A DNA stretch of 32,000 nt from an uncultured Chloroflexia bacterium (GTDB lineage: Bacteria > Chloroflexota > Anaerolineae > Anaerolineales > Anaerolineaceae). Position 1 is the stretch's first letter. Each line of letters opens with the position of its first letter. Made by a program: the position numbers and the translations under genes. The stretch covers positions 226,876-258,875 of the forward strand of contig CAWDZA010000023.1 in the NCBI GenBank assembly GCA_963806635.1, given 5' to 3'. Positions 18,275 to 19,956 of this stretch are shown in pieces. The notes under the pieces were generated by a model, which had not been told where the DNA came from, did no database searches, and saw nothing but the letters and a program-made list of their open reading frames with translations.

Positions 18275-18574
18275 TCAGCAGCAATCGCCCTGGCCGCCAC
18301 CGCAACCGCAGGTGGCTTCATCCATCTTTTTACCCCGCAGGGCAGCCTGGATCATGGCGGAGGCGCAGCCAACCCCGGCATCCACATAGATGGCTCTCAC
18401 CGGGCAGTTCAGCATGCAGGCGCCGCACTCCATGCAAGCAAGTGGGTTGGCAAGAATGGCTACTTTTTCCCCGCGGGCGAAGACGGCATGCGGGCAGACG
18501 ATGCTGCACAGGTCGCAGTTTATGCAGAGATCAGAATCATATTGCAGGGTGGTTTCGGTGTAGGAATTGAACAT
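18275..18574 (-). CDS. hgcB: HgcB, 2[4Fe-4S] ferredoxin of the mercury-methylation pair
   Basis: CINCDLCSIVCPHAVF; ANPLACMECGACMLNCPVRAIYVDAGVGCAS; C-terminal GDCC; starts 1 nt after the hgcA stop codon. Confidence 0.92.
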   Translation of the reverse strand: MFNSYTETTLQYDSDLCINCDLCSIVCPHAVFARGEKVAILANPLACMECGACMLNCPVRAIYVDAGVGCASAMIQAALRGKKMDEATCGCGGGQGDCC

Positions 18575-18575
18575 C

Positions 18576-19568
18576 TCAACCTCCCAGCGCTTTCCAAATC
18601 GCCAGACCTATCGTTACCGCCACGCTGAACCCGAAGAACCAGCCCATGACCGGGATATACGCGAAGATCTCCTTTTTCACACCGGTGCGGGAGGTGAAAG
18701 TGGAGGAGCCGGTGAAGTTGAGCGCGATGAAAGCCGTTACCACCGGGTAACCGAGCACGAGTGGCAGAAGGTGAAGGATTTTCGACCATAATGGACCCGT
18801 GGAGTTCGTCCAGGATTGAACCATAAAGGGCAGCATCACCACCAGACCAAGGAAGAAACCCTTGACGCTGAAATCATGGGAGGGCAGCCAGGGCAGCAGG
18901 ATGGGGAATAGCACAATCGCTGCCAGCACCGAAGTTACCACAGCCGCCACCGCAAACCAGCCGCCGAGGAAATAGAGGATCAGCGCTGCAAGCAGCGTGG
19001 GCAGGAAGTAGTTGATGATATCCACCGGGATGAGCGTGAGCCTATCCTTGATGCTGAACCGCACTTCGCGCATTTCTGCGGTTGCCTGCCGATTGCGCAG
19101 GTACTCCTTAAGGTCTTCCGCGCGGACGGGGCCGTATTCCACCTTGAAGCCGGTGCGCTTCTTCACAATGTGTGCCATCACCCCGGTGGCGCCCAGTTGG
19201 GGCAGGATCAACACCCGGGTGTTCACAATATCCTTCAACCCGGAGGACTCGATCCGCTTGACCAGCTCATTCGTCCCAAAGGTGCCCTTGCCGGCGGCGC
19301 ACCAGACGTTTATGCCGTGCGTGTCCAGGACTAGGATCCACCCATCCACGCCGGCAAGTGACGAGCGCAGCGCGTTGAAGGAGAGCTTGTAATTGGCGGT
19401 GACAAAGACAGGGGAATCCGGAGTGGGCGATCCGAGCGCATACAACCCCGGTTTCACCCGGTGCAGGGAGCGGTTAATGCCCACCCGCGCCTGAAAGGTG
19501 TCCCAGCGGTCCGCCGAAGTCAGCTGGTACGTTGTCGAAAAGAACTCAGCCTGCAACTTAACCTCCAT
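18576..19568 (-). CDS. hgcA: HgcA, corrinoid membrane protein of mercury methylation
   Basis: Cap-helix motif GINVWCAAGKGTFGTNELVKRI (Cys90 in the called ORF); hydrophobic C-terminal domain with several TM segments; NFTGSSTFTSRTGVKKE; followed by hgcB. Confidence 0.94.
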   Translation of the reverse strand: MEVKLQAEFFSTTYQLTSADRWDTFQARVGINRSLHRVKPGLYALGSPTPDSPVFVTANYKLSFNALRSSLAGVDGWILVLDTHGINVWCAAGKGTFGTNELVKRIESSGLKDIVNTRVLILPQLGATGVMAHIVKKRTGFKVEYGPVRAEDLKEYLRNRQATAEMREVRFSIKDRLTLIPVDIINYFLPTLLAALILYFLGGWFAVAAVVTSVLAAIVLFPILLPWLPSHDFSVKGFFLGLVVMLPFMVQSWTNSTGPLWSKILHLLPLVLGYPVVTAFIALNFTGSSTFTSRTGVKKEIFAYIPVMGWFFGFSVAVTIGLAIWKALGG

Positions 19569-19595
19569 TTTTTCCGATTAAAAAATCCATGTTCG

Positions 19596-19919
19596 CTACA
19601 TGCAGCATTTTTTCAGGGTCTCCGTTGTTTCGTGACTGGGTGCGAATTTGATCATCAGGTTGCCACAGCAGCGCACGATCTTTTCCTCGTTGAGGCGGTA
19701 GAAAGTCTGCTTGCCCTCTGCCCGAACCTCCACAAGTTCCGCTGCCCGCAGAATCGCCAGGTGGTGGGAAACAGTCGGCTGGCTTACGTTTAAATGGGCT
19801 ACGATCTCGTTTACCGATAGCCACTGGCAGCAGGCGAGCCCCATGATCTTCTGGCGGGTTTCATCTGCCAGGGCTTTGCTGAAAACCACTTCTTCATCAT
19901 GAATCATATCGATACCCAT
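19596..19919 (-). CDS. ArsR-family regulator immediately upstream of hgcAB
   Basis: LSVNEIVAHLNVSQPTVSHHLAILRAAELVEVRAEGKQTFYRL; cysteine pairs including terminal KKCCM; 27-nt gap to hgcA. Confidence 0.9.
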   Translation of the reverse strand: MGIDMIHDEEVVFSKALADETRQKIMGLACCQWLSVNEIVAHLNVSQPTVSHHLAILRAAELVEVRAEGKQTFYRLNEEKIVRCCGNLMIKFAPSHETTETLKKCCM

Positions 19920-19928
19920 CTATGTGTT

Positions 19929-19956
19929 ATTATATAGATAATCGTCTATATGTCAA
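19929..19956 (-). promoter_or_regulatory. Sigma70-type promoter with embedded ArsR-operator-like inverted repeat
   Basis: Minus strand TTGAC[ATATAGAcgattaTCTATAT]AAT: TTGACA-N16-TATAAT with a perfect 7-bp inverted repeat at 19932-19951; ATG lies 9 nt after the -10. Confidence 0.8.

Follow-up and report, generated by a model that had tools for sequence, protein, structure and literature searches.

A Chloroflexota-type arsR-hgcA-hgcB mercury-methylation unit and its predicted ArsR-controlled promoter

The arsR-hgcA-hgcB unit described here, found in a 32-kb stretch of DNA that was analysed as a whole (the window), is a genuine but unexceptional case of the two-gene mercury-methylation system already known, preceded by an arsenic-type repressor gene, and probably comes from an uncultured Chloroflexota bacterium. 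We consider it likely that the three genes form one operon, transcribed from a single sigma-70 promoter, repressed by ArsR and released by a ligand of this protein, and that the encoded HgcAB makes methylmercury. The fresh point of this analysis is that the repressor and DNA switch associated with hgcAB are predicted, from sequence comparisons, to control arsenic-methylation genes as well in related organisms.

To our knowledge, no genetic determinant of methylmercury formation by microbes other than hgcAB has been identified, and each verified carrier therefore refines our understanding of which organisms produce this neurotoxin. Wetland, paddy and sediment metagenomes are rich in hgcA genes of the Chloroflexota type, which have received little experimental study. 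The hgcAB genes have been known since 2013, and arsR-hgcAB with nearby acr3, arsC or arsM since 2020-2023, including cases in Chloroflexi MAGs; the arsR-hgcAB arrangement itself is thus already published and is not new.

Gene layout and the HgcA and HgcB proteins

Three co-directional open reading frames are present on the minus strand (arsR, 107 aa; hgcA, 330 aa; hgcB, 99 aa), and together with their promoter they make up the complete unit that the original prediction had placed at 18275-19956 (Table 1). The hgcA stop codon (TGA, 18578..18576) is separated by a single base from the hgcB ATG (18574..18572), in agreement with the junction first proposed. The GGAGG site, which had been described as straddling this junction, is actually located wholly within the final two sense codons of hgcA. 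The two genes are likely to be translationally coupled, and hgcA followed by hgcB is the gene order in nearly all of 63 genome loci. A search of the 27 nt between arsR and hgcA revealed no promoter-like or operator site, and this short gap implies that arsR and hgcAB are co-transcribed. A hairpin covering the hgcA ATG (19560-19593) was considered as a translational control element and rejected, as it is weak and A/T-rich and is not conserved in the related locus L002. Known RNAs, including cobalamin and SAM riboswitches, gave no Rfam match at the gathering threshold across the whole window. The window sequence is corroborated by an independent 330-aa protein (P0001) that is 99% identical to its HgcA and by a contig (L069/L118) with 94% nucleotide identity in which the gene order is kept. 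A look-up of the exact HgcA sequence gave no record, and these two are its closest relatives.

Table 1. Coordinates of the arsR-hgcA-hgcB unit, its predicted control elements and its neighbours (positions in the window).
Feature	Position	Strand	Remarks
GcvH-like	23857..23399	-	ars-type cluster directly upstream (20016..23857)
DGC-domain	23402..22965	-	upstream ars-type cluster
DGC-domain	23044..22229	-	upstream ars-type cluster
OsmC-like	22232..21777	-	upstream ars-type cluster
ArsE thioredoxin-like	21721..21470	-	upstream ars-type cluster
ArsC	21473..21060	-	upstream ars-type cluster
Acr3	21063..20016	-	upstream ars-type cluster; frameshift at 20491
arsR promoter	19929..19956	-	sigma-70; -35 TTGACA 19956..19951, 16-nt spacer, -10 TATAAT 19934..19929; 12/12 consensus positions
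Predicted operator O1	19932..19951		perfect palindrome ATATAGA-N6-TCTATAT; fills promoter spacer, overlaps -10
Predicted operator O2	19906..19925		ACATAGA-tgggta-TCGATAT; between -10 and arsR start; right edge abuts conserved ATG
arsR	19907..19596	-	ArsR/SmtB-family repressor, 103 aa (longest ORF from 19919, 107 aa); NF033788, Pfam HTH_5
arsR-hgcA spacer	19569..19595	-	27 nt
hgcA	19568..18576	-	corrinoid methyltransferase subunit, 330 aa; NF040863
Cap-helix motif NVWCAAGK	19287..19310	-	aa 87-94; C90 is the predicted Co-thiolate ligand
HgcA transmembrane domain	18588..19052	-	aa ~173-327, five hydrophobic segments; hydropathy and AlphaFold
GGAGG, hgcB ribosome-binding site	18584..18580	-	5 nt before hgcB ATG; direct reading
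hgcB	18574..18275	-	2x[4Fe-4S] ferredoxin, 99 aa; C70, C-terminal CGC...CC tail; NF040864
fadR putative promoter	TTGCAT 18255..18250, TATACT 18232..18227	-	the gene's own
FadR box AAGTGGTCTGACCAGTAA	18208-18225	-	before the fadR-like gene
fadR-like gene	18175..17465	-	downstream boundary, separate gene; NF003444, 203.7 bits

The HgcA protein scored 415.2 bits (E 1.7e-124) in a profile search with the NCBIfam equivalog NF040863, for which the cut-off is 275 bits, and its residues 12-321 aligned with positions 4-321 of the 325 in the profile. The cap-helix motif NVWCAAGK was read exactly where it had been predicted and is contained within GINVWCAAGKGTFGT. Its C90 is the equivalent of C93 in ND132 HgcA, a residue whose role has been described (Cooper 2020, PMC7305189; Zheng 2024, PMC11588087). 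Residues V88-G98 are unchanged across 72 homologues, and NVWCAAGK is present in all 58 HgcAs of the tree alignment, the two fusion proteins carrying NVWCAAGG. The CFeSP-like corrinoid domain comprises aa 36-160 (Pfam CdhD at aa 36-154) and was matched both by sequence search (PDB 2h9a, E 1.9e-12) and by Foldseek, which aligned the N-domain with 2ycl, 2h9a and 4djd at an rmsd of about 2.5 A.

The C-terminal 150 residues of HgcA are strongly hydrophobic. Five Kyte-Doolittle segments (approximately 179-203, 205-231, 232-251, 263-286 and 301-329) agree with the helices of the AlphaFold model (173-227, 233-255, 260-287 and 294-327; pLDDT about 87-96 over most of the domain) and bear out the multi-pass C-terminus suggested earlier; the membrane domain of ND132 HgcA is essential (Cooper 2020, PMC7305189). 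Both features whose loss had been named as grounds for rejecting the assignment, the cap-helix cysteine and the transmembrane domain, are therefore present. The best fold match of the AlphaFold model (pLDDT 83.7) was 9a0b (E 2.7e-18, TM 0.62, 37% identity over 327 columns), a computed integrative HgcAB model based on ND132 and the sole HgcAB entry found by fold, and CFeSP was matched in the N-domain only. A sequence search found no experimental HgcA structure. The cap-helix residues 90-94 of the model have a pLDDT below 50, which would be unsurprising for a model that lacks the cofactor.

For HgcB, the match to the NCBIfam equivalog NF040864 was 105.2 bits (E 1.2e-30), a narrow margin of 6 bits over the cut-off of 99, with residues 5-99 aligned to profile positions 2-93 of 93. 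Both proteins are thus above the curated equivalog cut-offs in the HMM check that had been recommended, and their E values put the matches far outside what chance would give. HgcB carries CINCDLCSIVCP and CMECGACMLNCP and terminates in ...CGCGGGQGDCC, and the CMECGAC motif and final Cys-Cys pair noticed in the original prediction are both in place. Its two CX2CX2CX3CP 4Fe-4S motifs run from C17 to C27 and from C47 to C57, with the prolines P28 and P58 directly after them. A lone cysteine, C70 in GVGC, lies 13 residues past the second motif and has an equivalent in 51 of 57 relatives, and the tail contributes C89, C91, C98 and C99. These cysteines correspond to those proven essential by mutagenesis of ND132 HgcB, namely C73 and at least one of C94/C95 (Cooper 2020, PMC7305189). 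The expectation that annotation pipelines mis-call these genes held in part. Pfam returns only CdhD and Fer4, and JGI and older NCBI names are 'hypothetical' or 'carbon monoxide dehydrogenase', but NCBIfam now provides HgcA and HgcB equivalog models and one relative (P0093) is already named HgcA.

Promoter, operators and the ArsR protein

At least 120 metagenome stretches share the arsR promoter, as do L002 and L064-L069. Operator O1 matches its pattern with 0 mismatches, the chance expectation, taken over all window matches, being 0.37, and it is kept in relatives; L005 has an equal promoter/operator layout with another half-site, ATTGA-N6-TCAAT, alongside a diverged ArsR. Operator O2 has two mismatches to the full pattern and one to the core. 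Its conservation was evaluated in 80 independent, promoter-anchored metagenome loci, which were selected with a search pattern that left O2 out. The O2 core was found no more than 14 nt from the -10 element in 75 of these loci (56 exact, 63 at equal offset) and in 0/80 for a control region. Two conserved palindromes, one in and one just past a consensus promoter, are what would be expected of an autoregulated gene, and both are regarded here as predicted operators.

The most probable start of arsR is its second ATG (19907), a codon that other loci keep at +22 from the -10 element. A leaderless transcript beginning at ATG 19919 was rejected on the basis of this conservation and of a Shine-Dalgarno-like AAGG, which relatives bear in the centre of O2. 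A third candidate ArsR site between hgcB and fadR (18230-18245) has a perfect ATAGA-N6-TCTAT core, and was rejected because L001, L002, L070 and L073 do not conserve its left half and its right half amounts to nothing more than the -10 region of fadR. The fadR promoter and FadR box are kept in these four loci and in L118.

ArsR exceeds the cut-offs of both NF033788 (80.1 bits against 55) and Pfam HTH_5 (50 bits against 22). Its model (pLDDT 88) contains the four helices, beta-hairpin and helix typical of the family and an extra C-terminal helix. The cysteines (107-aa numbering), as mapped by secondary-structure positions in the model only, are located in the alpha2-alpha3 loop (C30-C31), in helix alpha5 (C84-C85) and at the C-terminus (C105-C106). 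The CC and CCG signatures are unchanged in 42 homologues, and the C-terminal CC is the only signature confined to the window's closest relatives. We know of no described As(III) site type that consists of vicinal pairs in the alpha2-alpha3 loop and alpha5. In place of the ELCVCDLC site of R773 ArsR, the aligned segment reads CCQWLSVNEI and alpha3 has no cysteine; the CxC...CxC motif of ND132 ArsR2 (C47, C49, C86, C88) is likewise absent, the window protein having CC...CC elsewhere. Regulators of the ND132 type, with CVC...CYC, occur in L007 and L033, indicating that at least two ArsR types are found upstream of hgcAB. The nearest solved structure is SrnR (E 8e-11), and the arsenic-responsive ArsR 6j0e is a weak match (E 7.5e-6). 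An ArsR clade specific to hgcAB was considered and rejected, as the ArsRs of arsR-hgcAB, arsR-arsM-hgcAB and arsR-arsM loci share the cysteine signature, promoter and operators; identities to the window ArsR of about 70-75% are seen for hgcAB-linked and arsM-linked proteins alike.

A cysteine layout unlike any characterised As(III) site could mean that ArsR senses a signal other than arsenic, for instance Hg(II), Zn/Cd/Pb, S-adenosylhomocysteine, or the persulfide/redox stress sensed by BigR/SqrR-type members of its family, and that hgcAB is tuned to that signal. Among the next-best family matches are TsoR and the sulfite/sulfide sensor BigR (56.6 bits), ND132 ArsR2 responds to SAH too, and the third, C-terminal CC pair of the window lineage alone could alter specificity. 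However, the scores for BigR and TsoR fall well short of the respective cut-offs of 155 and 115 bits, arsM, at times with arsC, is repeatedly found in one operon with this regulator and operator, and the window unit comes after arsE-arsC-acr3. A non-arsenic signal is accordingly a possibility that we take seriously but consider doubtful.

Operons with the same switch and the neighbouring genes

In metagenomes, ArsR homologues with approximately 70% identity and an equal promoter/operator are located upstream of arsM, and the linked arsM products score 307-328 bits against NF008823 (cut-off 263). Of the loci headed by this module, 10 carry arsR-arsM-hgcAB, at least 18 carry arsR-hgcAB and others carry arsR-arsM(-arsC); one metagenome locus is ordered arsR-hgcAB-arsM. 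A broader proposal, which we offer tentatively and think unlikely to be correct, is that, in a broad group of uncultured anaerobes affiliated mostly with Chloroflexota, hgcAB belongs to an arsenic regulon, in which one ArsR of the CC...CC type and one ATAGA-N6-TCTAT operator would control two SAM-dependent enzymes, the arsenite methyltransferase ArsM and the corrinoid methyltransferase HgcAB, frequently from one arsR-arsM-hgcAB operon. If this were true, environmental arsenic, and not mercury, would turn on mercury methylation in these organisms, and a native role of HgcAB in metalloid methylation or detoxification beside ArsM would be possible.

The 10 loci that combine arsM and hgcAB under one ArsR promoter, and the single locus with the reverse order, also bear on whether HgcAB serves primarily in metalloid methylation or detoxification, with or like ArsM, or acts on another substrate, e.g. 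halomethanes, with mercury methylation as a side reaction. Such a function would fit with the use of SAM by both ArsM and HgcAB, with the published hypothesis of an ancestral HgcAB role other than Hg methylation, and with a 2026 preprint reporting that HgcAB dechlorinates CCl4. Co-location differs from function, however, and the ND132 delta-hgcAB mutant showed no significant loss of arsenic resistance overall. Furthermore, no arsM was found in the 32-kb window, and every residue needed for Hg methylation is kept in its HgcAB. We judge it unlikely that mercury methylation is secondary in this system.

The ars-type cluster upstream of the unit is co-directional with it and ends 96 nt before arsR, without a convincing terminator. 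Adjacency of acr3 to arsR-hgcAB is common to the window and L118 only. Dropping base 20491 restores a 348-aa Acr3, and both acr3 and glpD, which are near the unit, have a single-base frameshift. These frameshifts are probably assembly errors, and the base-level accuracy of the window is imperfect given such single-base indels in neighbouring genes. The GC content is 46-52% in the ars cluster and 54-57% in hgcAB, for a window mean of 55%. A foreign island around hgcAB was therefore rejected, since these genes have the mean GC content of the window and only the ars cluster upstream falls below it.

ArsR genes are common in ars operons, and with a cluster of this kind running up to it, arsR might mainly regulate the upstream ars genes or be their remnant, in which case hgcAB would be expressed by read-through or constitutively. 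This explanation is improbable, as arsR-hgcAB is kept with its own promoter and operator where acr3 is absent (L002, L070-L073), no further ATAGA-N6-TCTAT sites occur upstream of the ars cluster, and the lower GC content of the cluster suggests a later juxtaposition.

Relation to known systems, proposed mechanism and meaning

A neighbour-joining tree, rooted on two verified HgcAB-like fusions (L061 and L062; NF043039, 376-379 bits), placed the window HgcA beside L002 and L001 within a Chloroflexota clade next to Methanomicrobia. The protein lies inside the HgcA clade, far from the HgcAB-like fusions and CFeSP, and the phylogenetic check proposed at the outset thus groups it with Chloroflexota HgcAs and not with CdhD/CFeSP. 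Against the fusion model NF043039 (cut-off 285), HgcA scored 213.6 bits and HgcB 47.3, and the CFeSP gamma/large subunit model NF003195 (cut-off 306) gave 80.2 bits over profile positions 323-447 of 450 only. A reading of the 330-aa protein as a paralogue of the CFeSP/CdhD or HgcAB-like type that does not methylate mercury, and of the ferredoxin as a generic one, is extremely improbable: the Pfam matches limited to CdhD and Fer4, the HgcB score barely above its cut-off and the almost identical cap helix of the fusions would be consistent with this, but the 415-bit HgcA score stands against sub-threshold scores for both paralogue models, hgcA and hgcB are separate genes, NVWCAAGK keeps its Lys, the tree position is within true HgcAs, and HgcB has the C73-equivalent and tail cysteines.

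HgcA resembles the CFeSP large subunit (AcsC/CdhE; 2h9a, 2ycl, 4djd) in its corrinoid-binding Rossmann-like domain, with aa 37-160 aligning with CFeSP residues of about 319-442, but it is without the N-terminal [4Fe-4S] and TIM-barrel domains and adds the cap-helix cysteine and membrane domain. In common with ND132 HgcA/HgcB (Parks 2013; PMC7305189; PMC11588087), the genes are adjacent and encode a CFeSP-like domain, NVWCAAGK, a five-helix membrane domain, and an HgcB with two CxxCxxCxxxCP motifs, a cysteine about 12-13 residues further on and a C-terminal cysteine pair. Unlike its counterpart in P. mercurii ND132, the window HgcA belongs to the Chloroflexota clade, with about 40-47% identity to deltaproteobacterial HgcAs, and the HgcB tail has extra cysteines (CGC...CC).

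The regulatory gene can be compared with arsR2 of ND132 and P. hydrargyri BerOc1, where hgcAB is likewise immediately preceded by an ArsR/SmtB gene in the same orientation, which encodes four conserved cysteines per monomer. Repression of hgcAB by this regulator and induction by arsenic have been proposed, and are demonstrated for ND132 (Goni-Urriza 2020; Gionfriddo 2022/2023, 10.1101/2022.10.17.512643). In published work on this strain, ArsR2 represses hgcAB and responds to As and SAH, and the methylation rate is not predicted by the hgcAB transcript level. The two regulators represent separate ArsR subfamilies, with C47xC49...C86xC88 in ND132 and vicinal CC pairs in the window, and ND132 has no ars genes beside hgcAB, whereas arsE-arsC-acr3 is immediately upstream in the window. 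Classical ArsRs (R773, A. ferrooxidans ArsR, C. glutamicum ArsR1) are alike in being small winged-helix repressors with cysteine-thiolate sensing, an autoregulated promoter with a palindromic operator, and an association with arsC, acr3 and arsM, features which in the window are partly predicted; the R773 site is the difference noted above. McDaniel 2020 (PMC7438021, Fig. 6) presents MAGs in which hgcAB is flanked by acr3/arsC, with ArsR-like genes and arsM near, and a conserved, transcribed upstream regulator in Chloroflexi MAGs. Co-location is what the consulted passages of that work report; the promoter and operators, the cysteine signature and the sharing of the module are defined here.

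In the mechanism that we propose, one strong sigma-70 promoter would generate an arsR-hgcA-hgcB transcript from the minus strand, and an ArsR dimer is predicted to bind the two ATAGA-N6-TCTAT palindromes. Occupancy of O1 would cover the -35/-10 spacer and that of O2 the transcription start, ribosome-binding site and arsR start codon, and with ArsR on both sites transcription of arsR and hgcAB alike would be off. A thiophilic ligand, with As(III) or one of its methylated forms as the likeliest candidate, would bind at the vicinal cysteine pairs of the alpha2-alpha3 loop and alpha5, causing ArsR to leave the DNA and de-repressing the operon. HgcA would function as a membrane-anchored corrinoid protein in which the cap-helix Cys90 ligates cobalt, while HgcB may reduce the corrinoid to Co(I) and handle Hg(II) and methylmercury through C70 and the cysteines of its C-terminus. 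By analogy with the biochemistry of P. mercurii HgcAB, a methyl group from SAM would be passed to cobalt and then to Hg(II) to yield methylmercury; SAM has been described as the methyl donor, acting via methylcob(III)alamin with Co-thiolate coordination (Zheng 2024, PMC11588087).

The outcome is a testable regulatory model for this clade that comprises a promoter, two operators, a corrected arsR start and a four-cysteine sensor. A switch common to arsM and arsM-hgcAB operons sharpens the question of the purpose of HgcAB and of its inducer, and with short DNA and protein reagents the arsenic control of mercury methylation becomes testable outside the Desulfovibrionaceae.

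HgcA and HgcB identity

The original prediction described a complete arsR-hgcA-hgcB mercury-methylation unit at 18275-19956 of the window, and three tightly packed minus-strand open reading frames, all intact, are present there. The cap-helix motif NVWCAAGK forms residues 87-94 of HgcA at precisely the coordinates claimed (19287-19310), and the hydrophobic C-terminus comprises five strongly hydrophobic segments in the last 150 residues. HgcB carries the motifs CINCDLCSIVCP and CMECGACMLNCP, a tail (CGCGGGQGDCC) that ends in the predicted cysteine pair, and a lone Cys70 besides the cluster and tail cysteines. 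The gap of a single base was also found, hgcA stopping at 18578..18576 and hgcB starting with the ATG at 18574..18572; the GGAGG thought to straddle this junction lies instead within the last two hgcA codons (18584..18580), 5 nt before the ATG.

Features of the arsR-hgcA-hgcB unit and its control region
Feature	Coordinates	Strand	Remarks
Sigma-70 promoter	TTGACA 19956..19951, 16 nt, TATAAT 19934..19929	-	12/12 consensus; directly upstream of arsR
O1, predicted ArsR operator	19932-19951		Perfect palindrome ATATAGA-N6-TCTATAT within promoter spacer
O2, predicted ArsR operator	19906-19925		Second palindrome copy, two mismatches; between -10 element and arsR
ArsR-like ORF, 107 aa	19919..19596	-	ORF reading
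hgcA, 330 aa	19568..18576	-	ORF reading
hgcB, 99 aa	18574..18275	-	ORF reading

Both proteins exceed the cut-offs of the NCBI curated equivalog models: HgcA clearly (NF040863, 415.2 bits, cut-off 275, E 1.7e-124) and HgcB narrowly (NF040864, 105.2 bits, cut-off 99). The 330-aa protein falls below the cut-offs of the HgcAB-like fusion model (213.6 vs 285) and the CFeSP/ACDS gamma subunit model (80.2 vs 306). Pfam recognizes CdhD and Fer4 domains and nothing else in these proteins, and many relatives are consequently named 'hypothetical protein' or 'carbon monoxide dehydrogenase'. A sequence search of solved structures returned the CFeSP corrinoid domain as sole relative (2h9a, residues 37-160, E 1.9e-12). 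An AlphaFold model of HgcA built from 72 homologues (pLDDT 83.7, pTM 0.76) predicts an alpha/beta N-domain and long helices across residues 173-327, and its best match in a PDB-derived library is 9a0b, the HgcAB model that Cooper et al. deposited (E 2.7e-18, TM 0.62, 327 columns), followed by CFeSP large subunits that match the N-domain only. The cap helix appears in the model as a short helix (residues 88-91) of low confidence without the cofactor. Residues V88-W89-C90-A91-A92-G93-K94-G95 are invariant in the 72-sequence alignment. Among 57 HgcB proteins from one-per-species genomes, 51 have a cysteine 9-16 residues past the second cluster motif (13 for C70 of the window), and the tail contains additional cysteines in 51. 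The cysteines shown to be essential in Pseudodesulfovibrio mercurii ND132 (HgcA C93; HgcB C73 and C94/C95; PMC7305189) accordingly have counterparts in the window proteins.

Sixty sequences were placed in a neighbour-joining tree, with two verified HgcAB-like fusion proteins as the root. The neighbours of the window HgcA there are two 'uncultured Chloroflexia' MAGs (L002 and L001), and all three lie within a Chloroflexota clade (including one Acidobacteriota MAG) beside Methanomicrobia, the topology reported in PMC7438021. As the protein falls inside the HgcA clade and keeps its cap-helix cysteine and membrane domain, neither of the refuting outcomes named in the original prediction arose, and the HgcA/HgcB interpretation stands.

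Promoter, operators and regulator type

The promoter/operator layout recurs in related loci. It is the same in L002, where the arsR ATG lies at the right edge of O2, and it is kept in L005 with the half-sites ATTGA-N6-TCAAT and a more diverged ArsR, as expected if repressor and operator diverge together. Across 33 promoter-anchored loci the conserved arsR start is an ATG 22 nt past the -10 element, which corresponds to 19907 in the window, so that the true ArsR is probably 103 aa. Metagenome contigs, short and including some near-duplicates, were scanned with a 28-nt promoter/O1 pattern. It occurred in at least 120 stretches, and 80 of these were retrieved. As O2 was left out of this pattern, its recurrence provides an independent test: the O2 core lies at most 14 nt from the -10 element in 75 of the 80 retrieved loci (of at least 120), with the same offset in 63; a control region had it in none of 80. 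The centre of O2 contains a Shine-Dalgarno-like AAGG.

The 27-nt arsR-hgcA spacer contains no promoter-like or operator site, and the natural reading is therefore that the whole unit is co-transcribed and autoregulated by ArsR. Control of hgcAB by ArsR2 was shown experimentally in ND132 (10.1101/2022.10.17.512643); ArsR2 is unrelated to the window ArsR, but the control scheme proposed here matches it. An A/T-rich inverted repeat in the spacer (19560-19593; 14-nt arms, 79% complementary) would sequester the hgcA start codon, and is not kept in L002. At L093 the promoter/operator pattern (1230-1257) is followed directly by hgcA-hgcB, with an HgcA-matching frame opening 3 nt past the -10 element and no arsR detected between promoter and hgcA. 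In ten further loci (L075, L078, L084, L091, L109, L111, L129, L134, L140 and L148) the ArsR-matching frame begins ~250-340 nt past the promoter rather than at +22, and the interval may hold a short gene or a leader.

The classical As(III) motifs are all absent from the window ArsR. Its vicinal pairs C30-C31 and C84-C85 (numbered on the 107-aa ORF) are invariant among 42 homologues, and a third pair, C105-C106 (19596-19610; KKCCM or KNCCE), is seen in the window, L118 and L002 and in no other ArsR of this family examined, regardless of operon type. A predicted structure (pLDDT 88) places C30-C31 in the alpha2-alpha3 loop, C84-C85 in helix alpha5 and C105-C106 at the C-terminal end. Among solved structures SrnR comes nearest (E 8e-11), whereas the arsenic-responsive ArsR 6j0e matches weakly (E 7.5e-6). 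ND132 ArsR2 has a CxC...CxC arrangement in contrast to the CC...CC of the window, and as an ND132-type ArsR precedes hgcA in L007 and L033, at least two ArsR types occur upstream of hgcAB.

Neighbouring genes and base-level accuracy

An ars-type cluster lies upstream on the same strand, beginning at 21777-23857 with GcvH-like, two overlapping DGC-domain (four-Cys, putative Zn) and OsmC-like genes and continuing with ArsE, ArsC and Acr3; its GC content is 46-52% vs the 55% window mean, and no further ATAGA-N6-TCTAT site was found upstream of it. Adjacency of acr3 to arsR-hgcAB is common only to the window and L118, so the juxtaposition looks recent. The fadR-like gene that follows downstream is preceded by a putative promoter of its own (TTGCAT-17-TATACT, 18227-18255), just downstream of which is an E. 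coli-like FadR box, TGGTCTGACCA (AAGTGGTCTGACCAGTAA), at 18208-18225. Both elements are conserved in L001, L002, L070, L073 and L118 and thus mark the 3' boundary of the arsR-hgcAB unit; from these sites, FadR appears to control its own gene here, in what is probably a Chloroflexota genome. The window contains no known RNA families, including cobalamin or SAM riboswitches. A 443-aa ORF (25548-26879, plus strand) between M29 peptidase and PPK2 polyphosphate kinase genes gave no Pfam hit at E<=1e-5.

The exact window HgcA sequence is not on record; the protein relative P0001 (330 aa) is 99% identical. L118 (also L069), a 9.5-kb JGI contig, is 93.8% identical to the window in DNA and has the same gene order, acr3-arsR-hgcA-hgcB-fadR-glpD-...-FAD oxidase, and the two closest genomes (HgcA identity 79-82%) are Chloroflexota MAGs that have hgcB-fadR-glpD in common with the window. 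An uncultured member of the Chloroflexota is therefore the likeliest source of the window. Relative to L118, the window contains three single-base, frame-breaking coding insertions (20491, 17286 and 16125). An extra C at 20491 splits acr3 (20016-21063) into two frames, and its deletion restores a 348-aa Acr3; the split would reflect an assembly error or else a pseudogene of very recent origin. The other two divide the glpD-like glycerol-3-phosphate dehydrogenase gene (15831-17440), a single 526-aa gene in L118, into three ORFs, and the two broken genes together suggest indel-type assembly errors across the window. The hgcA gene is in two reading frames at L002, L007, L019 and L055, MAG loci of one large long-contig project of the same kind, and we read the window insertions as probable assembly errors rather than pseudogenes. 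Frameshift errors may hide hgcA or make it look like a pseudogene in such assemblies.

A control module common to arsM and hgcAB

A database search with the window ArsR returned 4,899 relatives. Five homologues (~70% identity, long contigs) all lie upstream of a 268-275-aa protein that passes the arsenite methyltransferase model NF008823 (307-328 bits, cut-off 263), and the promoters/operators of these arsR-arsM loci are nearly base-for-base those of the window; other homologues (71-94% identity) have hgcAB downstream. Downstream hgcA is present in 29 of the 80 retrieved loci (at least 120 in total), a non-random sample whose search pattern derives from both the arsM and hgcAB classes. Ten of the 29 have the order arsR-arsM-hgcA-hgcB (L080, L097, L098, L104, L123, L127, L139, L147, L149 and L152) and one, L090, has the same promoter/operator followed by arsR-hgcAB-arsM. 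A further 18 loci have arsR-arsM with no hgcA visible (some contigs end early; two continue with arsC), 15 have other downstream content and 18 are too short to judge. In the loci that carry both, arsenite methyltransferase and hgcAB appear to belong to one ArsR-controlled operon, and the compared sequences show that a single regulatory module serves genes for arsenic methylation and for mercury methylation, both apart and in combination. The window lacks an arsM gene.

The best-supported reading of the window is an ArsR-repressed arsR-hgcA-hgcB operon, for which we infer ArsR DNA binding, an inducer, co-transcription and HgcAB enzymatic activity, whereas the gene identities, motifs, fold and tree position, the conserved promoter/operator layout and its recurrence before arsM were demonstrated directly. 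ArsR would be held on O1 and O2 until a thiophilic ligand binds its cysteine pairs and releases it; given the regulator's gene company, As(III) or methyl-As(III) is the likeliest candidate. HgcB would reduce the HgcA corrinoid, SAM would donate a methyl group to Co(I), forming methylcob(III)alamin whose lower ligand is Cys90, and this group would pass to Hg(II), following the biochemistry of PMC11588087 and PMC7305189.

ArsR-like genes before hgcAB, and acr3, arsC and arsM nearby, are published (PMC7438021; 10.1101/2022.10.17.512643; PMC10349881), as is transcription of a conserved upstream regulator in Chloroflexi MAGs (PMC7438021), so this kind of system is known. New here are the defined promoter/operator, the corrected arsR start, a CC...CC type of regulator that differs from ND132 ArsR2, and control common to arsM and hgcAB. 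That arsenic switches on mercury methylation in this clade, as part of a metalloid-methylation regulon, would be a rather unlikely but conceivable extension of this shared control.
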